Assembly (NCBI GenBank): GCA_021841005.1
Contig: JAKBVZ010000013.1
Span: 9,364-73,363 of the forward strand
Source: Actinomycetes bacterium
Lineage (GTDB): Bacteria > Actinomycetota > Acidimicrobiia > Acidimicrobiales > JAMCPL01
Length of the DNA stretch: 64,000 nucleotides
Direction of reading: 5' to 3'
The notes beneath the pieces are model-generated. The model saw nothing but the letters and a program-made list of their open reading frames with translations, had not been told where the DNA came from and ran no database searches. Position numbers and translations under genes: made by a program. How positions within the stretch are numbered: position 1 is the first letter of the stretch; every line of letters begins with the position of its first letter. This document shows positions 6,704-64,000 of the stretch, in pieces.

Positions 6704-7564
6704 CTAATCTTCTATGTCCTCCCCTACCTGCAATCCATGCATATCCGGTTTCAAGCGTACAACATGACCCTGCATTCCAGCCTGGTAAAGTGAACTTCTC
6801 GCTCCGTCTAGGACATTAGCAGCCGACCGTGAATCGCATATGGCCAGCAGTGTCGGTCCTGCGCCGGACCAGCAGGCAGCCAGCGCTCCGGCTTCCAGCA
6901 TGGCGCTCATCAGACCGGGGGCCTGCGGAAAGAGCGGGCTACGGTAATCCTGATGCAACCTGTCTGCGCACGCCTCCCTGTCCAGCATCGACCTGTCCCC
7001 CAAGCCTGCCAAGAGCATAGCCATCCTTCCCAGATTGAAGGTTGCATCCGACCTGTGAACCATCTCGGGCAGGACCGTCCTCGCCTTCTTGGTGGACAGC
7101 GATCGGCTGGGGATCAGTGCCACAAAAGCCAAGTCCTCATCGAGAGGGAATCGGACCACCCTTACCTTGCCCCTCATCACCGTCGCCGCCACAAGACCGC
7201 CATAGAAGGAGGCAGCAGCGTTCTCGGGATGTCCATCCACGGCCACGCCAGCAGCGAGCGGGTCCGGCGAGCCGGCGGCTGCAGCGGCGGCTACCGCAAG
7301 CGCCGCAGATGATCCGAGTCCCCTTGCAACGGGAATGGACGAGTGCACAGATACGGAAAGATGATCGTGACCTGCCACCTCCATGGCAACCATTGCAGCA
7401 AGGTGATTTGCATCGCCAGAATACTCTGCCCCCTCGCCGTAACTGCTCACTGTAAGCCGTGGAGCAGGATTGACCTCCACTTCCACGTACAGATCAAGCG
7501 CTAGGGCAAGCACGTCGAATCCGGGTCCAAGGTTGGCGGCTGATGCAGGCGCTCTCGCTCTCAT
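6704..7564 (-). CDS. thrB: homoserine kinase
   Basis: N-terminal APASAANLGPGFDVLALAL and GHMP-kinase motif PVARGLGSSAA. Start set at MRARAP (7564), which has a GAGGA upstream. The ORF is open to 7636. Confidence 0.85.
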   Translation of the reverse strand: MRARAPASAANLGPGFDVLALALDLYVEVEVNPAPRLTVSSYGEGAEYSGDANHLAAMVAMEVAGHDHLSVSVHSSIPVARGLGSSAALAVAAAAAAGSPDPLAAGVAVDGHPENAAASFYGGLVAATVMRGKVRVVRFPLDEDLAFVALIPSRSLSTKKARTVLPEMVHRSDATFNLGRMAMLLAGLGDRSMLDREACADRLHQDYRSPLFPQAPGLMSAMLEAGALAACWSGAGPTLLAICDSRSAANVLDGARSSLYQAGMQGHVVRLKPDMHGLQVGEDIED

Positions 7565-7577
7565 GGTATCCTCATGG

Positions 7578-7613
7578 GTACTGTGTTGCTCATGGTTATC
7601 AGCAACATAGTAC
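7578..7613 (-). promoter_or_regulatory. 13-bp-stem hairpin in the thrB leader
   Basis: GTACTGTGTTGCT (7578-7590) pairs with AGCAACATAGTAC (7601-7613) with 1 mismatch. It ends about 14 nt upstream of the thrB start. Function unknown. Confidence 0.25.
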
Positions 7614-7822
7614 CAGCTATCGAGTATTATTACCAACGGTAATGCGGTAAAACGACATATAGTGAACGGACATGTGAATCACTTCCGGAGTAATTCGCAT
7701 CAGGTGCATATATTGAGGAGGAAACACCAGAGCATGGACATACCTGGCCAGAGGGCGACCGCCTAGAAAACAATGGTCCGGAAAGCAGGCATACCGGTAT
7801 ACAACACCGTAAGATCGGTACA

Positions 7823-9322
7823 ATGAAGCGCCTGGATATACGACACTTGGACATACATGTGCCACATTTTGGCATACCCCACTTGGGCACTGGTGTCTAC
7901 GTGCGTATTGCCATCGCCATAGTGTTGAGTATTGCGATAGTGGTGATTGCTGCGCGCCTCTCCCGCCCGACTCCTGCACTCATGCTGGCCCCAGCGTACA
8001 CGCTCGGCACGGCATCCCGTTACCCAGCGACACTGGACGTCATCACAGTGCCGCATGATCAACGGCCACGATCAAATATGTCCAAAGAACCCCGCATGGA
8101 TGCTTCACCGCCAGCTACCAGTGCGCCCGCCGGTACCTCTGCAGACCTATCTGCAACGACAACCAACGGCGCACCTTTCAATGCTACGCCACAATCGCCA
8201 CCCACGTTCTTCCCTACCGCCGCAATACAGGGGCTGCCCTGGCCGCAAAGCGGCGGAGCGGCAATCGGCATACCTGGGCCCAATGTCATCATGAGCCATG
8301 GACAGCTCGGGTCTGTGCCCATCGCCAGTCTCACGAAGATGATGACCGCATACGTCATCCTCCAGGATCATCCACTTGCTCCGGGCCAGAGCGGTCCAAC
8401 GATCAGGATTGACAGTACGGACGTAGATATCACATATAACGACGAATTGAACGACGAGACCATGGTGCCGGTTGCCCGTGGCGAGCTGCTCACCGAGAAG
8501 CAGGCACTGGAGGGCTTACTGGTACACTCGGCATGCAACCTCGCCTATGCACTGGCAAGATGGGACAGCGGCAGTGTGAACGTATTCGTCGCCAAGATGA
8601 ACACCACCGCTAGGGAGCTGGGACTTGACTCGACCAGATATGCGGGACCGGCGGGGTTCTCCCCGGCATCGGTCAGCACTCCTGCTGACTTGATAAAGCT
8701 GGCCACCGTGGCGATGTCCATACCGGCTTTCGCTGAGATTGTCGACCATCCCACTGTCGATCTGCCGGTTGCCGGAACTCTTTACAACTACGTAAGTGCG
8801 ATAGGCCAGAACGGGGTCATCGGCATCAAATCTGGGTTCAATTACCAGTCCCAAGGATGCGTGGTTCTTGCAGCGACGCGTTATGTGGACGGTCGGCCGG
8901 TACTGCTCATAGCGGCGGTTACCGGTCAGGGCGGGATGGATCCTCTCGGTAGCGCCCAGGCTGACGCGCTCGGGTTGATCGACTCACTTCCAGCCAGGCT
9001 GCATCGCCAGAGGGTGATATCAAAGGGCCAGACTTTCATGCACGCTGTTCTGATGGCACCGTGGCGATCCCACGGCCAGGCACGCTACGACGTTATGGCA
9101 GGAGAGTCCATCAGCATACTCGAGTGGCCAGGAGCCTCACCGGCAATATCCGTTCACTTCGTAAAGAGATCCTATGCGTGCAGGACGACCAGAATAGATG
9201 CGGATACTGGAACCATAATGGTCAGGATAGGTGCATTGACCCGAAGCGTACCTCTGGTACTTCGCCGGACACCTCACATGCCGCAGTGCCCCTCACTGCT
9301 CTGGCGACTGATCCACGCCTGA
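7823..9322 (+). CDS. D-alanyl-D-alanine carboxypeptidase (serine-type, PBP5/S11-like) with N-terminal membrane anchor
   Basis: SxxK motif in ASLTKMMT, SxN in HSACN, KxG in IKSGF, plus a hydrophobic N-terminal segment. Start uncertain. Confidence 0.75.
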   Translation: MKRLDIRHLDIHVPHFGIPHLGTGVYVRIAIAIVLSIAIVVIAARLSRPTPALMLAPAYTLGTASRYPATLDVITVPHDQRPRSNMSKEPRMDASPPATSAPAGTSADLSATTTNGAPFNATPQSPPTFFPTAAIQGLPWPQSGGAAIGIPGPNVIMSHGQLGSVPIASLTKMMTAYVILQDHPLAPGQSGPTIRIDSTDVDITYNDELNDETMVPVARGELLTEKQALEGLLVHSACNLAYALARWDSGSVNVFVAKMNTTARELGLDSTRYAGPAGFSPASVSTPADLIKLATVAMSIPAFAEIVDHPTVDLPVAGTLYNYVSAIGQNGVIGIKSGFNYQSQGCVVLAATRYVDGRPVLLIAAVTGQGGMDPLGSAQADALGLIDSLPARLHRQRVISKGQTFMHAVLMAPWRSHGQARYDVMAGESISILEWPGASPAISVHFVKRSYACRTTRIDADTGTIMVRIGALTRSVPLVLRRTPHMPQCPSLLWRLIHA

Positions 9323-9413
9323 CCTGCTCCCCACTCTGAAATGCACCCCATTTGTTGGACAACCTGAGGGCATTGCTAAGCCCCCTGTCCAGATATTGGG
9401 ATCCCCTTCGCTC

Positions 9414-12296
9414 TCAGCATCGAGACCTAGCGTCGGAAAGCTCCTCGGGGGTCATCAGAACGGCCCGTGCCTTGGAGCCCTCCGATGGACCGACAACCCC
9501 CTTGCGTTCGAGAAGATCCATCAGCCTACCCGCACGTGCAAAACCGACCTTCAGCTTTCGTTGCAACATAGAAGTTGAACCGATCTGCGAATTGACCACC
9601 AGTTCCAATGCGGCATCCAGCAACTCATCATCTTCTGACGACACCGTTCCTCGCGATGAGGGTGTTTGCGCACCTTCGACACCAGCCACGTATTGTGCCT
9701 GCCTCTGACGTTTCCAGTAGCCGACAATCACCTGCACTTCGCGTGAGTCCGCCCATGCGCCCTGAATGCGCCTTGGCACCGATGACGATGCAGTAAGCAT
9801 GAGCATATCTCCCTTGCTCACCAGACGTTCCGCCCCAGGCTGATCGAGGATGACCCTGCTGTCAGCTAGAGACGACACCGCGAAAGCAAGGCGGGATGGC
9901 ACGTTGGCCTTTATGACACCAGTGATGACATCCACCGAAGGCCTCTGAGTGGCAAGTACGAGATGCACGCCTACTGCTCTGGCCATTTGCGCTATCCGGC
10001 ACACCGAGTCCTCCACATCACGAGCCGCCACCATCATCAGATCATTCAATTCGTCGACCACGACCACTATGTATGGCAACGGGGAGTGCTCGACGACTGC
10101 GACTCGGTCGCTATCCTTCTCGCCATCCACATGAGCGCCGTTGGTGGCATCTTCAACATCCACCCCATCGTGCATCGCCGGTTCCAGCCGCAACGATGGA
10201 CTTGGCAGTTGCGCGCCACCGTCCGCAGTATCCGCCATCTCATCGGTCGTCCGTCGGACACCATCTGCTGCATCTCCAACCCCCACCACCTCTTCGGCCC
10301 GACCGTTCGAAATGATGATGTCATTGTACCCAGCTATATCACGCGCACCCACCTCGGCTAGAAGGCGGTACCGCCTGTCCATCTCATCCACGGCCCAGCT
10401 GAGCGCGTTTGCAGCCTTGCGGGGGTCCACGACCACTTCGGTGAGGAGGTGTGGAAGTCCGCTGTAAGGTCCGAGTTCCACCCGTTTCGGATCTATCAGG
10501 ATGAGCCGTACCTGGTCAGGCGTAGCCCTCATCAGCAGGGACGTGATCAGCGCATTGATACATGATGACTTACCGGAGCCGGTCGCACCGGATATCAGGA
10601 GATGCGGCATATCCGATAAGTTCACCATTACCGCCTTGCCCGATATATCGCGGCCGAGGGCGACGTTCAACGGATGCGTGTCTGCCCTGGCCTCCTTGCT
10701 CGACAGTATGTCACCAAGTGTGACCAACTCCCTGTCATGGTTGGGCACCTCGATGCCGATGGCGGACTTGCCGGGTATAGGTGCAATGATACGTACATCA
10801 GGGGAGGCCATCGCGTATGCTATATCCTTCGACAGGCTGGTCACCCTGGCAACCTTGACGCCGGAACCCAATTCCAGCTCGTATCTGGTAACGGTTGGCC
10901 CTACAGTGAACCCAGCCAGCCTCGTGTCCACTCCATGGGAGGCCAGCGCGCCCACCAATGCACGCCCTACGTTCTCGACATCCTGACGATCGACCGACAT
11001 CGGCCTGGATCTCGCCAGCATCTGTAGGGGGGGCAACCTCCATCCACCACGACCGGACCCCGGGAAAAGCTGCTGCTGGATGTATTCGCCGTCCAATCCA
11101 CCATCCTTGAGCATGTCCTCCGCACGCCCTTCCGCCCCTGCCTTTTCGCCACGGGAATAAAGTGCAGCTATATCTTCCGCTCCATGCTCCTGTTCACGAG
11201 AGTGACCCGGGTGGGCGGACCCATCTGGTACGTCGAGCGGGCCCGGTATATCAGCGCCACCAGTACCTCCGCGCCGTCCAGACCTAGTGCCACTAGATGC
11301 TATGCCAGCAATACCAGCTGAGCTGGCCAGATCCCCGGTAACCGCCAATCCAGATCCATCGTATGTAGCGGCATCTCCTACCATAAGATCGTTGCCAAGA
11401 TCATCTCCAGATCCCGAGAGATCATGCACGAACTCGCCAGTTGGCATTCCGGAAGCCTCGCGCGCTCCCCCCTGTCCTGCGACTTCACCCAATGGCCGGC
11501 CGCGCTTCGATCCCGCCGGGAATGTGCCGACACCCGCAGCTTGCATTCCTTCGCCCGGAGGGTTTGCACCGGTTGCGTCAGGAGCGGTATGCAGGTAAGC
11601 CCAGGCACGCCGGATACCGTTCGATACAAAGCGCACGACCTGGCGCAGTGTCATGCCCGTGATCACAAGCGTGGCAAACATGCCAAGGGCGGAAAGCAGG
11701 ATCACCGTACCGGCTGCACCCAGCCCTGCCGCCGGTAGGCCGCCGGCACCTACGCCCAGCCATCCGCCCGCCCCTGCTAGCGCGGATGGTGGATGAGCAC
11801 CAATTCCAGGAAAGCCGGCTGCCACATCGGCCAGACCGGATACGCATGCCATGACTATGGCCGTTGCACTTGCCTGCCATGGAAGGTCTCGAACAATACG
11901 CCCGGTAAACGCGTACCCCGCTGCTATGGCAAGCAGCACCGGGAGTGCGAAACGCGTTACACCGATAGACAGCCCCAGGTACCTTCTCGATACCAGTCCG
12001 ACCGGACCGAGCGAATCGCCATATAGCGCAAGCGCAAGCAGCACAGCAGCAAGAAGCAACAATATGCCTACCAGATCCATTTTGTGGCGTTCGGCGGCAG
12101 TCGATCGAAGGTGAGACCCTTGCGCTTTCGTAGTCTCTAATGCCTGCTTGCTCCTCGCTCCCCTGGAAGGCGCCGCTGCCTGCCTGATTGGCTCTCCCCT
12201 AGAGGGCGCGACAACCCTACTGCTCGTACCTGTACTGCCGGCCCGCCGCATTCTCGCGCCGACACCCTTCTTGGCCTTAGGCCGCGCCACACTCAT
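9414..12296 (-). CDS. ftsK: DNA translocase FtsK/SpoIIIE
   Basis: 960 aa. N-terminal transmembrane segments and a low-complexity linker. Motor domain has Walker A GATGSGKS and Walker B VVVVDE. C-terminal winged-helix gamma domain (STSMLQRKLKVGFARAGRLMD). Confidence 0.93.
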   Translation of the reverse strand: MSVARPKAKKGVGARMRRAGSTGTSSRVVAPSRGEPIRQAAAPSRGARSKQALETTKAQGSHLRSTAAERHKMDLVGILLLLAAVLLALALYGDSLGPVGLVSRRYLGLSIGVTRFALPVLLAIAAGYAFTGRIVRDLPWQASATAIVMACVSGLADVAAGFPGIGAHPPSALAGAGGWLGVGAGGLPAAGLGAAGTVILLSALGMFATLVITGMTLRQVVRFVSNGIRRAWAYLHTAPDATGANPPGEGMQAAGVGTFPAGSKRGRPLGEVAGQGGAREASGMPTGEFVHDLSGSGDDLGNDLMVGDAATYDGSGLAVTGDLASSAGIAGIASSGTRSGRRGGTGGADIPGPLDVPDGSAHPGHSREQEHGAEDIAALYSRGEKAGAEGRAEDMLKDGGLDGEYIQQQLFPGSGRGGWRLPPLQMLARSRPMSVDRQDVENVGRALVGALASHGVDTRLAGFTVGPTVTRYELELGSGVKVARVTSLSKDIAYAMASPDVRIIAPIPGKSAIGIEVPNHDRELVTLGDILSSKEARADTHPLNVALGRDISGKAVMVNLSDMPHLLISGATGSGKSSCINALITSLLMRATPDQVRLILIDPKRVELGPYSGLPHLLTEVVVDPRKAANALSWAVDEMDRRYRLLAEVGARDIAGYNDIIISNGRAEEVVGVGDAADGVRRTTDEMADTADGGAQLPSPSLRLEPAMHDGVDVEDATNGAHVDGEKDSDRVAVVEHSPLPYIVVVVDELNDLMMVAARDVEDSVCRIAQMARAVGVHLVLATQRPSVDVITGVIKANVPSRLAFAVSSLADSRVILDQPGAERLVSKGDMLMLTASSSVPRRIQGAWADSREVQVIVGYWKRQRQAQYVAGVEGAQTPSSRGTVSSEDDELLDAALELVVNSQIGSTSMLQRKLKVGFARAGRLMDLLERKGVVGPSEGSKARAVLMTPEELSDARSRC

Positions 12297-12381
12297 TATT
12301 GATCCTGTAACCGACAGTGCAATCCATTTACCTCACAGTTTACGCCGGAAGGCTACAAATGTGTTGGATGCTCAGCCATCC

Positions 12382-12413
12382 ATGATCACTCACATGATCA
12401 CTCACATGATCAC
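12382..12413. repeat. 12-bp tandem repeat ATGATCACTCAC x2.7
   Basis: Read directly. Overlaps the rnj stop codon. Confidence 0.9.
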
Positions 12414-14078
12414 GACAACGGGCACGATCAGCGGGCGCCTCTTGGTCCGCTCTCCTACCAGCCTGCCAAGCGCCTGGCGTGCATGGCGATGGAGCGTTTC
12501 GTCGTCAGACGCCCCATCCGCTATAGCCTTTTCGAGACTCGTGCGCACTGTGGCAGCGGCCTCTTCGAGCAGATCTTCGGCTTCTTTTGCATGCACCCAT
12601 CCTCTGGTGACTATCTCCGGAGTACCCACCACCTCCCCTGCGTGCAAATCCACCACCGCCATCACCACTATCATCCCCTCCTCAGCAAGAGCTCTCCGGT
12701 CTCTCAGGACACCGTGGCTGACATCGCCCACCGTCCCGTCGACATACAGGAAGCCGGCGGGAACATTGCCGTCGCGAACAAGACTGCTGCCGTCCAGCCT
12801 TACGCGGTTGCCATCCTCACAGATCAGAACGTGCCCTGGATCCACCCCGCTCTGCGAGGCAAGCTGGGCGTGCTGTACCAGATGGCGCAATTCGCCATGT
12901 ACCGGAATGAAATACTCCGGCCTAGTCAGGGAAAGAAGCGTACGCAGCTCGCCCCTGCGTGCGTGACCACTCACATGTACCTGCTCTATGCCTGTATGTA
13001 TAACTCCAGCTCCACGGCGGGTGAGACCATTGATCACCTTGCCAACGGCCCACTCGTTGCCGGGAATAGGGTGAGCACTGATTATCACCAGATCATCCTT
13101 GCCCAGTTTCATCACCCTGCTCTCGCCAGCCGCAAGAAGCGCCAGTGCAGAGAGGGGCTCACCCTGAGACCCGGTGCATATCACGCATACCTTGCCAGGA
13201 TCGAGACTGCTGACCGATTCGACCGGTACCTGGTCTTTTTCAGGAAGGTCCAGCAAACCGAGCCCCCTGGCAAGCTCAATGTTCTTCTCCATGGACCTTC
13301 CAAGAGCCGCAATCTTCCTGCCCGATTCCCTGGCGGCGGTGGCCACCTGCTGTATCCTGTGTATATGGCTAGCAAAACATGCAGCCACGATACGTTTGCC
13401 GGGATTGGCGACCATCACCCGGCTGATGGCCTCGCCCACCACCGACTCAGACAGGGTAAAACCTGGCTCGTCTGCATTGGTGGAGTCCGACATCAGTAGC
13501 CGTATCCCCTCGTTGTGAGCCAGAGATCCTATCCGCGAGAGATCCGTAAACCTTCCATCTATGGGCGCCAGATCGAGCTTGAAATCACCCGAATGGAGGA
13601 TGATGCCCTGGCGGGTATGGAATGCAGTGGCAAAACCGTGAGGGACCGAGTGTGTCACCGGTATGAACTCGACCCCGAAAGGACCAATCTGGACCAGATC
13701 GCCGTCCTTCACCTCCCGGAACTGCGCTCTCCCTGCAAGCCCTGCCTCTTCCACCCGGTGTCTCGCCAAGGAAAGGGTGAGTGCCGATCCGTACACCGGT
13801 ATCTTGAGTTCCCGAAGCAGGTAAGGAAGCCCGCCTGTATGGTCCTCGTGCCCATGGGTCAGTACGAGCCCATCGACCGATCCGGCCCTTTCATGGATGT
13901 AATCGAAATTGGGCAGTACGAGATCCACTCCCGGCATGTCAGGCTCCGGGAACATGACACCGCAATCGAGAATGACCATGCGGCCATCCGACTCTATGCA
14001 GGCGCAGTTGCGCCCGATCTCTCCAAGGCCACCAAGGAAGGTGATGGTTACTGCGCTCTTACGGCTCTTACGTGTCAT
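12402..14078 (-). CDS. rnj: ribonuclease J
   Basis: 558 aa. Metallo-beta-lactamase/beta-CASP fold with HGHEDHTGG; overall RNase J architecture. Confidence 0.93.
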   Translation of the reverse strand: MTRKSRKSAVTITFLGGLGEIGRNCACIESDGRMVILDCGVMFPEPDMPGVDLVLPNFDYIHERAGSVDGLVLTHGHEDHTGGLPYLLRELKIPVYGSALTLSLARHRVEEAGLAGRAQFREVKDGDLVQIGPFGVEFIPVTHSVPHGFATAFHTRQGIILHSGDFKLDLAPIDGRFTDLSRIGSLAHNEGIRLLMSDSTNADEPGFTLSESVVGEAISRVMVANPGKRIVAACFASHIHRIQQVATAARESGRKIAALGRSMEKNIELARGLGLLDLPEKDQVPVESVSSLDPGKVCVICTGSQGEPLSALALLAAGESRVMKLGKDDLVIISAHPIPGNEWAVGKVINGLTRRGAGVIHTGIEQVHVSGHARRGELRTLLSLTRPEYFIPVHGELRHLVQHAQLASQSGVDPGHVLICEDGNRVRLDGSSLVRDGNVPAGFLYVDGTVGDVSHGVLRDRRALAEEGMIVVMAVVDLHAGEVVGTPEIVTRGWVHAKEAEDLLEEAAATVRTSLEKAIADGASDDETLHRHARQALGRLVGERTKRRPLIVPVVVIM

Positions 14079-58622: not shown

Positions 58623-59972
58623 TTATGGAGACAGCAACCGGCCATGGAAGGTAAGCGCACTCATACCTGCAAGAAGGACCACTTCCACGGCAGTAAACAG
58701 CTTCAACGACTTCCCTTCGAGATGATCCGCCCACACTACTATGGCAGGAAAAGCAACTATCAGCATGCGAGCATTCGGCGGCGTACGTATCGACCACAGC
58801 GTAAGTAACCCTATCCCGGCAACCCAGGCAAACACTTCAATGGGTAACGCCGGCAGACGGCGCCACAGCAGGACCAACGCCATCACCAAGAAAACAGCTC
58901 CAGCCAACCCGTTGACGAAATCAAGGTTGATGGCATGGTGCGACAGGAACCTGGCAGGGTTGGACGCGACCCCTGCAAGAATTTGGACGATCAACGCTAT
59001 AGGGTTTCCTGACTGGTGCCACCCAGATGCCTGAGCGTCGAGCGTAGCAAACGGAGTTCCCGTCCATGCCCATAGAAAGAGGGCAAACCCGCCAATACCC
59101 AATGGGGCGATAGCGGGCGCCAGCATGCTTCGCTTTGCCTCTTTACGATTGACACCGTCACCGAAATACATCATGCAGGCTACGAGGATGCACACTGGTA
59201 TGGCCACCAGTCCAACAGGTTCGACAGCTCCAGCCAGTGCGGCGCTGATTCCGGCCACCACCCAGCGACGTTTCGCAAGAGCCAAAAGGCAACCTGCACC
59301 GAGAGCTGCGGTAAGGCCCTCAGGGTAGACCATGGAGAATACGATGGAACCCGGGAACAGGCACAGAACGATGACGGCCCACTTACCGGCATCCTTTCCC
59401 CACCATCTATTCACCAGGCTCTCCACCAGTACAACTGTCACAAATCCGGCCACCCCAGATACAACAAGCCCCGCAATCAGAGGCGATGTGAAAGTCAGGC
59501 GTGACACGATCAGGATCAGTAGCGGGTATACAGGCAGGAATCCGAGGGTCGACTGGCCCGCAGGCACGTGAGCAGGATAGCCGTGATGGACTATGGCCAG
59601 GTACCACACTCCGTCCCAGTTGGAAAGCTCAGAGCTGAGAGACGTATGCATCACTATGGCCTCAGCCAGCGCAACCCATAGAATCAGCAAGCGTGAGCAA
59701 GCGTACACGGCCGCTTCCCACCGCCATGCCCGGAGCTTGACATATACCGCGCCTGCAACAGTTCGCGGCGACGAAGCGTGATGTCTCCCAGACCATGCCT
59801 GCCGCCGCATATTACGCTCGGAGGATACCGGTGAGGCACCGCCACCTGGGCTATCGTACCCGCCCTGGCTCAATGCTCGTATGCCGGACCCTCGTGAACC
59901 GATCTTGCCGGCAGGCACATCCTTGCCATTCACGTCCATGCTCATGCTCATGCCATCCATGCTCATGCTCAT
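58623..59972 (-). CDS. integral-membrane glycosyltransferase, PIG-V-like mannosyltransferase family
   Basis: Multiple TM helices and the NWDGVWYLAIVHHGYP motif. The ORF is open to 60335, but its first roughly 120 codons are R/C/P-rich and overlap the opposite-strand gene. Start placed at Met 59972; 59810 is an alternative. Confidence 0.55.
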   Translation of the reverse strand: MSMSMDGMSMSMDVNGKDVPAGKIGSRGSGIRALSQGGYDSPGGGASPVSSERNMRRQAWSGRHHASSPRTVAGAVYVKLRAWRWEAAVYACSRLLILWVALAEAIVMHTSLSSELSNWDGVWYLAIVHHGYPAHVPAGQSTLGFLPVYPLLILIVSRLTFTSPLIAGLVVSGVAGFVTVVLVESLVNRWWGKDAGKWAVIVLCLFPGSIVFSMVYPEGLTAALGAGCLLALAKRRWVVAGISAALAGAVEPVGLVAIPVCILVACMMYFGDGVNRKEAKRSMLAPAIAPLGIGGFALFLWAWTGTPFATLDAQASGWHQSGNPIALIVQILAGVASNPARFLSHHAINLDFVNGLAGAVFLVMALVLLWRRLPALPIEVFAWVAGIGLLTLWSIRTPPNARMLIVAFPAIVVWADHLEGKSLKLFTAVEVVLLAGMSALTFHGRLLSP

Positions 59973-59974
59973 GC
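59935..59974. repeat. 21-bp period repeat TCCATGCTCATGCTCATGC x2 (MSMSMD x2 on the minus strand)
   Basis: Read directly. Confidence 0.85.
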
Positions 59975-60118
59975 GATATCCGGTCCGGCTCTTTGTGCCA
60001 CATATAGACAGTACAGCAGGAGCCGAGTCGGTGCATAGGCACTTACGCAACGATCTGCGCCGACCGGTCCTATCCACTCTCCGCTGGATGCTGAAGAGCC
60101 AAGCCAGGCCGCGAAGAC

Positions 60119-61045
60119 TTGGCCCAGATTGCAACGCGCCTTTCAGTACTGGCGCGGCAGGCCGGCATGGCGGCCGTAGCAGTAGACGCAGTACACACCA
60201 AGGTACAGATGATTGACCAGATCTTCTTCTCCGTTGCCCGCACGCTCGATTGGGACAGGCTGGCCAGAACCACCGTGAATCGAATCTGCCACATGTTGGG
60301 CTACGAGATTCCGGTCGGCAATCCACGGATCTCACTCGCGGAACTTGCAGAACTCTACAGCTATGACCTACACGAGTTGCGCCGAGACGTCAACCGGGGC
60401 CTCCAATCTGAAATCTTCAAGAACTACAAGATGGTCCAAGACTTCCGAATTGCGATGATACGACTCTGCCAGTTCGAATTCAAGACAGGCCAATTTACCG
60501 ATGCCGAGGCCGAGGCCGTCAAGGCATGGCTTCGTGGCCAGCTTAGCCAGATCTCCCTACTTCGCAACACTCGTATATTCCGCCGAATCACACGAACCAA
60601 CGCAAGGGCTATGCTGTTCTCGCTCGTCCACTGGCTGACAAGCAATGAATATACGGGGTTGTTGCTCACCCTTGATCTACAGCAGTTCTTCAAAGGACGG
60701 GAGCGCGACGCGACCGGCATGCGCATCATGTACACCCGGGCGGCAATTATAGATACCTACGAGTCCATGCGCCAGCTTATCGACAACACCGATGAGTTCC
60801 AGTCCATGGCAACAGTTGTCTGCCTGCCACCAGATTTTACCATCGACCGTACTCGGGGCATGGATCTCTACCAGGCTCTCAAGTTGCGGATCTATGACGA
60901 GGTACGAGATGAGGCCCGAGACAATCCGTTCGGAACGCTCGTTCGGCTTGGAGGATTGAAGAATGATGTCGATTATGACCTCGCCGGCCAGGGAATGGCT
61001 CCATGGCAGCAACAGATGCTCAGAAGAGTTCTGCCGCAACGGTAG
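60119..61045 (+). CDS. BrxD/DUF2791-like ATPase paralog lacking the Walker A region and with a degenerate Walker B (possibly 5'-truncated)
   Basis: The frame is closed by TGA at 60092. The first residues (LARQAGMAAVAVDAV) align with the segment just after the P-loop of the downstream paralog (AQRALQEHFVVSSVV). LFSLVHWLTSNEYTGLLLTLDLQQ parallels LSFVSRLIAAASYSGWVILLDEVE. Confidence 0.45.
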   Translation: MAQIATRLSVLARQAGMAAVAVDAVHTKVQMIDQIFFSVARTLDWDRLARTTVNRICHMLGYEIPVGNPRISLAELAELYSYDLHELRRDVNRGLQSEIFKNYKMVQDFRIAMIRLCQFEFKTGQFTDAEAEAVKAWLRGQLSQISLLRNTRIFRRITRTNARAMLFSLVHWLTSNEYTGLLLTLDLQQFFKGRERDATGMRIMYTRAAIIDTYESMRQLIDNTDEFQSMATVVCLPPDFTIDRTRGMDLYQALKLRIYDEVRDEARDNPFGTLVRLGGLKNDVDYDLAGQGMAPWQQQMLRRVLPQR

Positions 61046-61523
61046 CCGCGCTTCGCGCGCTCGAGGCTTTGCGTGCGGGATTACCGAATAGGGAAAGCGT
61101 CCTTTATCTGGGGACCATGCAGGACCAGGTCGTCGACAAGTACCTGGCAAATCTCGAGTTCACCAAGCGTCGGGCAAACTGGGAACCTGTAGAGGGCGTC
61201 TACGATGGCCTATTGCTCGCCAGCGGATTCGGAAGCGGCAAGAGCCACCTTCTCGAGTACCTGGCGCAACGAGCGTTGCAGGAACACTTTGTTGTCTCCA
61301 GCGTCGTTATCTCAAAGGAGACTCCTCTTCACAACATATCTGCGGTTTACCGAGCGGCCATCAACGACGCGCGAGTCCAGGCAGGCCCGGGTCGGCCATC
61401 AGCGAAATCGCTATGGGCCTCAAGACGGACCCACTCCGGTTCGCTAAGCTCTACCGATGGTTGGCCACGGACGGCAGGTTCGTCGACCACCGGCTCACCG
61501 CGACGCTGCTAATGTTTGACCAG

Positions 61524-61565
61524 TTTGGAGGAGGTGATGAGGAGTTTGGAGGAGGTGATGAGGAG
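61524..61565 (+). repeat. 21-bp tandem repeat TTTGGAGGAGGTGATGAGGAG x2 (FGGGDEE x2)
   Basis: Read directly. In frame in the ATPase. Confidence 0.95.
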
Positions 61566-62258
61566 TTTGATGACAAGATCCTGCAATTCTGGGCCGGCGA
61601 TACCTTCGCTATCGCCGAGATCCGGAAACGGCTGCGAGAGGCAGGGTGGTTGGGCGAGTATGACATCCGGTCAACTCGAGAAGACGCACTCTGCCGGGAC
61701 AGGCTGTCATTCGTGTCACGTCTCATCGCTGCTGCCAGCTATTCCGGTTGGGTAATCCTCCTTGACGAAGTTGAGCTGATCGGAAGGTATTCACTCCTTC
61801 AAAGAGGTCGTTCTTACGCAGAAATCGCACAGTGGCTGCAAGGACAGGATCGTGATCCGAACGCCCCCTGGACCGCGGTTCTTACCACGGTCGATGACTT
61901 CGAGACCGAAGTCCTGATAGCAAGAAACGATCTCGAGAAGTTCCCAACGAGACTCTCCTCGGTCGCCCAAGGCGCACAGCAACTCGTTGACTCGGCCAAG
62001 CGTGGTATGGAACTCCTGCGCGAGGGCTCGATGCGTCTAGAACCACCAACCAGCGACGAACTCGACACAACCTATCGTGCAATCAAGTCAATTCATGGTG
62101 AAGCACTCGACTGGGTACCGCCGGATGTGCACGGGATAGAGCGCCTACCCTCGAACAGGATGCGCCAGTACGTGAGGTCGTGGATAAACGAGTGGGGTCT
62201 GGTCTATCTCGATCCAAGCTACTCCCCGGTTACGATTTCAACCGATGTCAAGGTCGAT

Positions 62259-62336
62259 CTCAGCGCGGAAACCCAGGTGGACGCTGAAGGTTATCTCAGC
62301 GCGGAAACCCAGGTGGACGCTGAAGGTTATCTCAGC
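62259..62336 (+). repeat. 36-bp tandem repeat x2.2 (LSAETQVDAEGY x2)
   Basis: Read directly. In frame near the ATPase C-terminus. Confidence 0.95.
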
Positions 62337-62355
62337 CTTGAAGCACTAGGCCGCG

Positions 62356-63888
62356 GTGCTCTCGGAATCGCTTGCGAAGATTCTAAGTAACGGCAGGTGC
62401 CTCACGGCCGACGAGCTTGCCACGGTCCGGACGCCGCGACGCTCTGAGCATGGAGCTACGCGCCAATCGGTCCTTACCACCGTGATGTCGCTCTCCACCT
62501 TCGAGCAGTGTTGGAAGACGGGAGAGGCTTGGTCTCTTGCGGGACAGTGCCCCCATTGGCATCGCGATGCCTTGGACGACCCTGAACCAGTACTGGAATC
62601 CCTCCCGTCAATGTTCGCTTGGCAAACCGAGGCACTTGTTGCATGGCATGAGGCAGGATCTCGAGGTCTGATCGAGGCGGTCACCGGAGCGGGGAAGAGC
62701 ATGATCGCTCTGCATGCAATCCATGAAATCGTATTGTCGGGCGGGCGTGCACTGGTTGTGGTTCCAACGATAGAACTCCAGGCCCAGTGGCTGGTCCTGT
62801 TGCAATCAGCTTTCGCCAGACGGTTTATCGTTGAGAAGCTACTCGATCGGGTGGCAAGGATCTACACCGAACCTCACATTGTAGTTGCCGTGATCAACTC
62901 CGCCAGGGACGGCAGTTTTTCGGTCACCGGCAACGGCAACCTGCTGGTTGTCGACGAAGTCCATCGTTGCGCGTCACCGGTGAATGCACGCGTCTTGGAC
63001 GACCGCTTCGATTACCGGCTCGGACTTAGCGCTACCGTCGCTCGACCCGACGCAGGACATCATCGGTATCTCGAGCCATACTTCGGCCCCATCGTCTACA
63101 GATATCTTTACGCCGAGGCGGTGCACGATAATGTTGTAGCAAGGTTCCGGCTCACTTTACGTGCCGTTACGATGTACCGGGACGAGTGGGATGGATATTT
63201 GGAACTTGGCCGGCTCGTAAGAATGCTCCACCGGGCATTCTTATCTAAATACGACCTCCCCATACCAGACGGCGAGTTCGTCGCGGTACTTATCAAGGCA
63301 TGTGCGGGTCACTTCAGCACTAGGTCGCCAGAACTCCAAGAAGTCGCCATCAAACTCCGGCAAGCTCTCTTTCAACGCCGTACTTTTCTGGATGGCCTCA
63401 GATCCAAACTGGATGAACTTGCACGGCTCGTCCCCCTTATTCACAGGGCAAAACGCTGCCTGATCTTTGGCCAAACAATCGCATCCGCGGAAGCCTCCGC
63501 GGCCGCCCTTCTGCAGCAGGGCGTCAGGGCAGCATCCATCCACTCCGGGACACCGCGTTCGCTCAGGCGCGAGCAACTTTATCGCTTTGAAAGAGGTGAC
63601 CTAGAAGTCTTAGCAGCACCCCGGATACTACATGAGGGGATTGATGTTCCAGAGGTTGGACTTGCAGTAATCGCAACAGCCTCGAGTTCGGAGCGTCAGC
63701 TCATCCAACGCCTTGGCCGGATTCTACGACGTAAGCCCGATGGGAGCGCAGCACAACTGGTCGTGCTCTTTGCCAGTGGAACTGTTGAAGACCCCACCTT
63801 CGGCGCCCAAGCGGATCTGCTGCCACAGCTCATCGCGTCAGCAAAGAGCTTCGAGATACTCGGGCAGCCGTCCACTCCCATGAGCTGA
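62356..63888 (+). CDS. superfamily 2 helicase (DEAD/DEAH, ResIII/XPB-like)
   Basis: Motif I AVTGAGKS (62677-62700), motif II DEVH (62953-62964), motif III SAT, motif VI QRLGRILRR. Start may instead be Met 62485. Confidence 0.85.
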   Translation: MLSESLAKILSNGRCLTADELATVRTPRRSEHGATRQSVLTTVMSLSTFEQCWKTGEAWSLAGQCPHWHRDALDDPEPVLESLPSMFAWQTEALVAWHEAGSRGLIEAVTGAGKSMIALHAIHEIVLSGGRALVVVPTIELQAQWLVLLQSAFARRFIVEKLLDRVARIYTEPHIVVAVINSARDGSFSVTGNGNLLVVDEVHRCASPVNARVLDDRFDYRLGLSATVARPDAGHHRYLEPYFGPIVYRYLYAEAVHDNVVARFRLTLRAVTMYRDEWDGYLELGRLVRMLHRAFLSKYDLPIPDGEFVAVLIKACAGHFSTRSPELQEVAIKLRQALFQRRTFLDGLRSKLDELARLVPLIHRAKRCLIFGQTIASAEASAAALLQQGVRAASIHSGTPRSLRREQLYRFERGDLEVLAAPRILHEGIDVPEVGLAVIATASSSERQLIQRLGRILRRKPDGSAAQLVVLFASGTVEDPTFGAQADLLPQLIASAKSFEILGQPSTPMS

Positions 63889-64000
63889 TCGTCCGCCACG
63901 GGCGCCCTGCCTCGCACCGATGCAGGTGTCATTTCGCGTTTTCCTCCAATGCTCTCCGAGCAATGTCACTGCTACGGTGCTGATCCGTACCAGTTGCACA

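Follow-up and report, generated by a model that had tools for sequence, protein, structure and literature searches.

Three described defence systems bear directly on the locus discussed here. Shango is composed of a TerB protein (SngA), an ATPase (SngB) and a helicase (SngC) (10.1101/2022.11.11.516204). In BREX type 2, BrxD is an ORC-Cdc6 AAA+ protein, tightly linked to the helicase BrxHI and proposed to be its loader or activator (PMC12839542), and PbeA of the DndCDEA-PbeABCD system is an N-terminal HKD endonuclease fused to a superfamily 2 (SF2) helicase (PMC10853773). Here we analyse a related locus at positions 60098-63888 of a 64,000-nucleotide stretch of DNA (below, the window) from an Acidimicrobiales lineage, JAMCPL01 (assembly GCA_021841005.1, contig JAKBVZ010000013.1, forward-strand positions 9,364 to 73,363). 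It holds two genes of the DUF2791 (PF10923) ATPase family, g1 and g2, followed by an SF2 helicase gene, g3. We interpret this segment, with a probability of about 0.85-0.9, as the 3' remnant of a horizontally spread operon in which g1, g2 and the helicase gene are preceded by a gene that we call c2 and, in some loci, by a further gene, c8. Judged from its lesions, the window copy has most likely lost its function and is in decay.

The original prediction, made on the same DNA from its letters and a list of open reading frames (ORFs), had placed three co-oriented genes here, and the ORF listing bears it out: g1, g2 (in two frames) and g3 all lie on the plus strand. The lesions described below are located relative to a 91%-identical sister-species locus, L003, our main reference. 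The features are the following.

60095-60118, plus strand: left breakpoint of the remnant, where homology to the g1 family and to L003 begins, directly after an in-frame TGA at 60092-60094.
60098-61045, plus strand: g1, a P-loop-less DUF2791 (ORC/Cdc6-like AAA+) paralog, by PF10923 match and family alignment.
61003-61376, plus strand: N-terminal part of g2, frame 1, with the Walker A motif GFGSGKSH (PF10923, E 3e-10; BrxD, E 1.8e-8).
61376-61377, plus strand: frameshift in g2, a 1-bp deletion, by alignment to L003.
61377-62390, plus strand: C-terminal part of g2, frame 3, with the Walker B motif VILLDEVE (PF10923, 22.4 bits; ORF 61413-62390).
61522-61569, plus strand: perfect in-frame 21-bp tandem duplication in g2, 2.3 copies, duplicating GGGDEEF (Tandem Repeats Finder); absent from L003 and all aligned family members.
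62257-62336, plus strand: perfect in-frame 36-bp tandem duplication at the g2 C-terminus, 2.2 copies, duplicating LSAETQVDAEGY (Tandem Repeats Finder); absent from L003.
62356-63888, plus strand: g3, an SF2 helicase with an intact frame and without a nuclease domain, by Pfam matches to Helicase_C, ResIII and DEAD.

The family to which this locus belongs resembles Shango in being a small operon for a DUF2791-type ATPase, an SF2 helicase and an upstream partner of non-enzymatic appearance. The PADLOC model of SngB matches the N-terminal fragment of window g2 (E 1.4e-4), g1 (E 0.015) and the intact g2 of one relative, L017 (E 3.6e-10), always more weakly than BrxD does. However, the window has no TerB gene and the upstream c2 of the relatives matches neither TerB nor SngA; the family has two DUF2791 paralogs, one of them inactive, where Shango has one; and g3 matches SngC at only E 8.4e-4, over the C-terminal core alone, against 1.1e-57 for PbeA. 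The likeness to BREX type 2 consists in a stand-alone PF10923 AAA+ ATPase tightly linked to an SF2 helicase, BrxD being the best PADLOC and NCBIfam match of both g1 and g2, at 33-35 bits. Yet against a cut-off of 350 bits the BrxD equivalog NF033438 yields 33.9 and 33.1 bits for the window and, for intact relatives, 39 and 62.7 bits; the ATPase of the family is duplicated into an active and an inactive member; g3 is not a Lhr/Ski2-like BrxHI (E 1e-8, C-terminal core only); and no PglX, PglZ, BrxC (PglY) or PglW is present in the window flank or within 10 kb on either side of the relatives.

The nearest described relative of g3 is the SF2 helicase module of PbeA, but g3 lacks the HKD domain and its TIGR04095 score of 144.6 bits falls far under the cut-off of 600. 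In further contrast to PbeABCD, there is no CxC ABC ATPase (PbeC), no DndE-like PbeD and no dnd gene, and none of the operon proteins matches PbeB, PbeC or PbeD in PADLOC. The Hma system (SNF2-nuclease, DUF1156, DUF499) was set aside as it consists of different proteins. Thus the earlier view that the layout is neither Shango nor BREX, with no TerB and no Pgl or Brx core genes, stands. No description of this operon was found in the literature on DUF2791/PF10923, BrxD, Shango/SngB and PbeABCD. The family looks like an undescribed defence system, kin to the defence-type modules that pair a DUF2791 ATPase with a helicase, although it may have received a name recently.

The nature of the window copy becomes apparent from its relatives. 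A g1 relative is encoded in 324 of the 185,579 GTDB species representatives, scanned at one genome per species. Besides the Acidimicrobiia, the carriers include Dormibacterota, Gemmatimonadota, Nitrospirota, Syntrophales, Chloroflexia, one Pseudomonadota and one Oscillospiraceae metagenome-assembled genome (MAG), and others; cultured carriers are Ferrimicrobium acidiphilum and Acidithrix ferrooxidans. We fetched 80 loci from the 324 genomes, mostly Acidimicrobiia, to define the operon architectures. In essentially all 80, g2 follows g1, and ORF clustering, in which c13 and an SNF2 helicase with an Mrr-type nuclease domain (SNF2/Mrr) appear as alternative downstream genes, distinguishes these layouts:

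c8, c2, g1, g2, SF2 helicase: 29 loci.
c2, g1, g2, SF2 helicase: 9 loci.
c2, g1, g2, c13, SNF2/Mrr: 14 loci.
The same layout in partial form: 5 loci, 4 of them without the SNF2/Mrr ORF (mostly at a contig end) and 1 without c13.
c2, g1, g2 only: 9 loci, some of them cut by a contig end.

Across the 80 loci, c2 is missing only where g1 lies at a contig edge and in two visibly decayed loci, L051 and L082. The genes are tightly packed: in L017 their start and stop codons overlap throughout (7342-9108 for c8, 9105-9890 for c2, then 9887-10840, 10837-12093 and 12083-13699). A g3-type SF2 helicase gene directly follows g2 in the window, as in the SF2-helicase form of the family. According to ORF clustering, the loci have no conserved gene family in common beyond the operon itself, and the neighbours at some relatives include AbiEii, PIN/VapBC, IS1595 and Transposase_mut transposases and a phage integrase. 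The location of the operon differs even between sister species: to the left of g1, L003 has c2, apparently split, then a CPBP-type membrane protease, tRNA-Arg and argS, all unrelated to the flank of the window copy. A survey of co-occurrence, suggested with the original prediction, thus finds that g1 and g2 do recur with a helicase, but the trio alone is not the unit, since c2 precedes g1. The layout of an ATPase, a degenerate ATPase and a helicase, taken earlier for that of a system, is what was left of the operon after loss of its 5' part, and the relatives carry c2 and often c8. The earlier remark that it is not a recognised layout is right, but the layout is an artefact of this gene loss.

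Two further observations concern the completeness of the relatives. The c2 gene of L003 (9016-9900) is apparently in two pieces (9016-9558 and 9664-9900), with g1 and g2 intact and the contig ending inside g3, so this operon may be decaying independently. Five loci, L007, L010 (Acidithrix ferrooxidans PY-F3), L071, L076 and L078, carry c2, g1 and g2 and no recognisable helicase downstream despite available sequence; what follows is a convergent gene, for an aldehyde dehydrogenase in L010 and for an N6-adenine methyltransferase-like protein in L076. These five may do without the helicase, encode it elsewhere or have lost it.

Window g1 is truncated at its 5' end. Its candidate starts are TTG 60119 and ATG 60167. 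It had been considered a whole gene; however, in a tblastn search with the Ferrimicrobium homolog P0002 the similarity starts at 60098, which corresponds to residue 32 of P0002, and no trace of the lost N-terminal part was found upstream in any frame. Correspondingly, blastn similarity to L003 begins at 60116, and the pairwise alignment collapses upstream of approximately 60106. The 88 g1 relatives in the protein collection all belong to PF10923 and have 260-339 residues (most 312-339), the nearest being those of Ferrimicrobium at 73-76% identity. Their conserved N-terminus, MI..Y..F...EYL......GGAAVKF.V, is absent from window g1, which lacks the first ~31 codons with the segment Y..F...EYL......GGAAVKF. 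Full-length g1 of the operon family has about 317-339 residues with this N-terminus, and the window gene departs from it in both respects; that it might be naturally short was rejected for the same reason. The native stop has also gone: L003 has an ATGA overlap with the g2 start, and in the window the TGA has become TGG at 61001-61003, with a 14-codon read-through as the result.

The assignment of g1 and g2 to one family agrees with what had been expected of them. Against a Pfam gathering threshold of 22.2 bits, PF10923 (BrxC_BrxD) scores 41.1 bits for g1 (60119-61045, E 1.5e-10), 40.0 bits for the N-terminal and a marginal 22.4 bits for the C-terminal fragment of g2, and 50 and 86 bits for the proteins of intact relatives. 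As described earlier, g1 has no P-loop and has LLLTLDLQQ in the place of Walker B, while g2 carries both GFGSGKSH and VILLDEVE, so that one of the two ATPase-like genes is degenerate and the other is intact in its motifs. The family alignment extends this to the relatives: g1 has GGAAVKF and LTLDL at the Walker A and B places, the former missing from the window copy, and in g2 GFGxGKSH is invariant, and the Walker B segment LL[IL]DE[VA]EL is conserved, with D255 and E256 invariant. A direct profile comparison of g1 and g2 by hhalign pairs the LTLDL of g1 with the Walker B of g2.

In g2 the frame is broken between the two motifs, GFGSGKSH and ILLDEVE, both of which are kept. One A has been lost at 61376/7 (L003 reads GTACCAGG, the window GTCCAGG), and the N-terminal ORF (61003-61512) runs on out of register to a stop at 61512. 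In L003, g2 is a single ORF of 426 residues with neither the 1-bp deletion nor either duplication; an uninterrupted g2 of about 415-430 residues is the rule in the operon family, and most relatives, L003 and the cultured Ferrimicrobium acidiphilum (L004) among them, give one uninterrupted match, which window g2 does not. The 36-bp unit is present twice in the window, in L001 (NCBI contig DAHYFJ010000007.1 of GCA_027390655.1, to which the window is 100% identical) and in L002, and once in L090 (strain GCA_027390625.1); since it varies between strains, this duplication is recent and polymorphic. Neither the two tandem duplications nor the loss of the g1 stop had been noticed in the original prediction.

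The frame of g3 is intact. Its motifs AVTGAGKS, DEVH, SAT and QRLGRILRR and its Pfam matches confirm the SF2 helicase recognised earlier, and its core also resembles those of XPB, Hef and RecG. The PADLOC model of PbeA (E 1.1e-57) aligns only from about position 250 of PbeA (~250-672), and TIGR04095, "dnd_restrict_1", gives E 4.6e-42; as PbeA joins an HKD nuclease to the SF2 helicase, g3 corresponds to the helicase module without the nuclease. Its N-terminal 85 residues are unrelated to PbeA. The identity of g3 is 88% to L003 and 63% to Ferrimicrobium. Most of its departures from family-conserved positions are common to L003 and L004 and are thus a trait of the clade. Four are not found in L004, at 344, 426 (H for D, in a stretch taken as helicase motif V), 467 and 485; they may be specific to the window lineage, L003 ending before the 344-485 region.

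Taken together, the window copy has lost c2 (and c8, if ever present), the 5' end and the stop of g1, and the integrity of g2 through one deletion and two duplications, and only the helicase frame is intact; it is on these lesions that we regard the copy as most likely non-functional. A rearrangement or deletion with a breakpoint at about 60095-60116 would have taken away c2 together with any c8, as well as the promoter-proximal region and some 31 codons at the start of g1, after which the g1 stop would have been lost and g2 would have acquired the 1-bp deletion and the two tandem duplications. Wherever the flanking mannosyltransferase gene was found, on 24 contigs, the layout is truncated in the same way. 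The ratio of nonsynonymous to synonymous substitution rates (dN/dS) between the window and L003 is 0.18-0.23, and relative to the more distant L004 it is 0.05-0.09 for the pairs with an estimable dS, namely g2 and, between L003 and L004, g1; dS was saturated for g3 and one g1 pair. This pattern fits a recent relaxation of selection.

One might instead suppose that the trio is a functional defence system in reduced form, with translation of g1 beginning at an internal codon, g2 produced in two separate chains or by -1 slippage, and the helicase serving as the motor. All invariant motifs of g2 and g3 are kept, dN/dS is about 0.2, and the truncated state is common to all sampled strains. A heptamer C CCG GGT at 61386-61392, about 10 nt past the deletion, has the slippery pattern X XXY YYZ in the upstream frame, and by slipping back one nucleotide there the ribosome would regain the frame of g2 at the cost of only about five altered residues. 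The heptamer is probably a coincidence, however, as the same bases are ordinary coding sequence, in a different frame, in L003. The frame change is a plain 1-bp loss relative to L003, with no conserved recoding site, and g2 is uninterrupted in most relatives, which is why a programmed -1 frameshift was rejected as the main explanation. Moreover, the absence of c2 is otherwise confined to contig edges and to the decayed L051 and L082, g1 is left without its N-terminal strand, the GGAAVKF segment and its stop, and the fresh in-frame duplications, one of them polymorphic, suggest relaxed constraint. We therefore hold a functional trio to be very improbable.

It seems scarcely credible that errors of sequencing or assembly produced the frameshift and the duplications and that g2 is in truth intact, although the source is a MAG and split genes, possibly sequencing errors, occur in some relatives from the MFD series of MAGs. 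This series accounts for most of the few relatives in which g2 is split, and there the splits may indeed be sequencing errors. The frameshifted g2 calls of the window (169 and 292 residues), by contrast, recur in independent NCBI and ENA assemblies and in all 24 contigs; the deletion lies outside any long homopolymer; the sole difference in one strain is how often the 36-bp unit occurs, as would be expected of a real polymorphism; and an artefact would bring back neither c2 nor the N-terminus of g1. For the latter reason the repair of the frameshift, proposed earlier as a preliminary to challenge with phage, falls short of restoring the system: c2, the N-terminus of g1 and its stop are gone as well.

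If the window copy is a remnant, the function of the system is to be sought in the intact relatives and their partner proteins. The protein c2 (about 265 residues) has no Pfam, PADLOC or NCBIfam match, and its clusters in the protein collection, at least 982, include none with an informative name or Pfam domain (examples are L017 9105-9890 and P0181). Its AlphaFold2 model, built on a 30-sequence alignment, is confident (pLDDT 89.5); it shows a helical hairpin at the N-terminus, then an alpha/beta domain, and a C-terminus resembling a winged helix. A Foldseek search of PDB found no neighbour below E = 1 for the whole model or E = 2.2 for the domain alone, and a sequence-profile search of PDB returned only coiled-coil noise; on the predicted model, c2 may represent a new fold or a new combination of domains. 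Two candidate identities were rejected. TerB, which would have made the operon a Shango system, gave no match in 30 members at E up to 10, nor did SngA match. A PD-(D/E)xK nuclease was suggested by the invariant E89, D105 and D127-K128 and by MutH as the top match, but with Foldseek E-values of 1-3, for the whole model and for the domain alone, and an atypical motif spacing it is speculation.

The gene c8, which neither the Ferrimicrobium clade nor the SNF2 variant possesses, encodes a protein of about 450-600 residues (e.g., L017 7342-9108); its only match, seen for 9 of the 22 members and at best with E 4.6e-6, is to sigma-70 region 4. By eye, a stretch of c8 (...ERxLDAHGxARTxxEIAADLAxGGRxV...RRFxR...GAVxLxxWG) resembles a HARE-HTH-type winged helix, with no Pfam match. 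For c13, about 185 residues long, no match was found, and neither the NCBIfam release of June 2026 nor the PADLOC defence models contain a model for c2, c8 or c13. The alternative effector is better defined: c15 (e.g., L058 12738-14972), the SNF2/Mrr gene of the second variant and not present in the window, encodes an SNF2 helicase that has an Mrr_cat nuclease at its C-terminus (Pfam E 8e-44 and 1.6e-26). Known SNF2 helicases of defence systems are ZorD of Zorya, which has a fused Mrr-like nuclease, and DpdE; both match c15 in PADLOC (E 1.4e-69 and 8e-60, respectively). However, no other Zorya or Dpd gene accompanies c15, and its NCBIfam ZorD score is 147 bits against a cut-off of 1500. The earlier statement that no effector is evident therefore holds for the form with the SF2 helicase, where no nuclease is seen, and not for the variant with SNF2-Mrr_cat.

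A role against mobile genetic elements is the best-supported reading of the intact family, and on the comparative evidence we consider it rather probable. It is indicated by the variant with a ZorD/DpdE-related nuclease, the PbeA-related helicase, the sparse and scattered distribution, the differing insertion sites, the neighbouring mobile and toxin-antitoxin genes and the frequent decay. The assignment of the locus to a defence-type module is accordingly plausible for the intact family, by its nuclease variant, patchy distribution and neighbours, and does not extend to the decayed copy of the window. A possible mechanism may be outlined as follows. The inactive g1 and the active g2, as ORC/Cdc6-like AAA+ proteins, would form a hetero-oligomer that, together with c2, which looks DNA-binding, and c8, with its sigma-70 region-4-type helix-turn-helix, would recognise foreign or aberrant DNA. 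This complex would then load or activate an SF2 translocase, the PbeA/XPB-like helicase in one variant; in the other it would load the SNF2 helicase-Mrr nuclease, which would cut the target. We infer each of these steps by analogy with the loader role proposed for the BrxD-BrxHI dyad (PMC12839542). As a complete picture, an undescribed family that acts against mobile elements, built of c2, g1 and g2 with either the PbeA/XPB-like helicase or c13 and SNF2-Mrr, in which a c2-guided heteromer of active and inactive ATPases loads a translocase or nuclease on invading DNA and of which the window holds a dead copy, has about even odds.

Several observations weigh against this interpretation of the locus and its family. 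No family relatives were found in 2.9 million IMG/VR viral contigs, and PLSDB plasmids gave one weak match. Several copies stand among housekeeping genes, and the window copy is one of these, lying between core genes of sugar metabolism on one side and tRNA genes and dapD on the other, with no defence island. No catalytic domain can be recognised in the proteins c2, c8 and c13, nor is a nuclease evident in the variant with the SF2 helicase. The paralogy of g1 and g2 follows from their shared Pfam family and is weak in direct profile comparison (hhalign probability 20%, E 1e-3). For the window copy itself, a dN/dS of about 0.2 implies mostly purifying selection since the divergence from L003, so the decay must be recent, and a residual function of g3 alone is possible; and as the left flank of L003 differs, c2 may have been lost either by a local deletion or by a larger rearrangement.

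Some of these facts, namely the near-absence from viruses and plasmids, the housekeeping surroundings and the lack of any PADLOC or NCBIfam defence model for c2, c8 and c13, would equally suit a module of DNA repair, replication restart or chromosome maintenance, composed of ORC/Cdc6-like loaders and an XPB-like helicase. The resemblance of g3 to the XPB, Hef and RecG cores and the ORC/Cdc6-like nature of BrxD-type proteins (PMC12839542) point in the same direction. A module of this kind would hardly be limited to 324 of 185,579 species representatives scattered across unrelated phyla, change its location between sister species, exchange its helicase for a ZorD/DpdE-like SNF2-Mrr nuclease in one variant, or be accompanied by AbiEii, VapBC, transposases and an integrase; its copies are also readily lost or decayed, as in the window, L003, L051 and L082. 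We thus consider a housekeeping function unlikely, and a role of the intact family against mobile elements the better account.

The flanks of the remnant partly differ from the earlier description. The membrane glycosyltransferase noted at the left border is indeed there: it is a PF04188 mannosyltransferase on the minus strand, divergent from the trio and separated from it by an intergenic stretch of 146 bp where c2 would be expected. Farther left, in L001, are alcohol dehydrogenases, a xylulokinase-type FGGY kinase and sugar-binding/LacI genes. The gene thought to converge on g3 from downstream was not found; instead, just past the window end, the parent contig carries three tRNA genes, tRNA-Lys(ctt) and tRNA-His (both minus strand) and tRNA-Arg (plus strand), followed by dapD- and dapE-type genes. 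Accordingly, the flanks in L001 show neither a convergent protein gene downstream nor a defence island around this copy. A scan of 59700-64000 for consensus promoters and terminators yielded none above shuffled expectation.

Two details of these flanks may be recorded. The contigs L001 and L002/L090 diverge exactly within tRNA-Lys(ctt) (L001 11724-11798, about 64079-64153 in window numbering, just beyond its end). L002 and L090 retain 47 nt of one end of this tRNA gene, the 3' end given its minus-strand orientation, and continue into unrelated genes: one with a faint sigma-70 region 2 match, two for proteins of 816 and 875 residues, and one for a large Big_3_5/MG2 surface-type protein. This arrangement suggests an island or element integrated at the tRNA gene beside the remnant. 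On the other side, a 21-bp unit is repeated perfectly in tandem at window positions 59935-59974 (1.9 copies, rich in CATGCT), either at the start of the minus-strand mannosyltransferase gene or immediately upstream of it. In the longest ORF of this gene the repeat is coding, for MSMSMDGMSMSMD; with the shorter start, placed at 59972 in L001, the repeat spans that start. Within 2.5 kb this makes three recent tandem duplications.

An annotation of the locus in the window should thus record a decaying remnant, made up of pseudogenes and one intact helicase frame, rather than a defence system of three genes. It draws attention to an operon without a name, carried mostly by uncultured Acidimicrobiia and by other soil, peat and subsurface lineages. 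In this family an active and an inactive BrxD-like AAA+ protein are paired with c2 and with interchangeable helicase or helicase-nuclease modules. Whether DUF2791 ATPases load helicases could be asked here in a system less complex than BREX type 2 or Shango.

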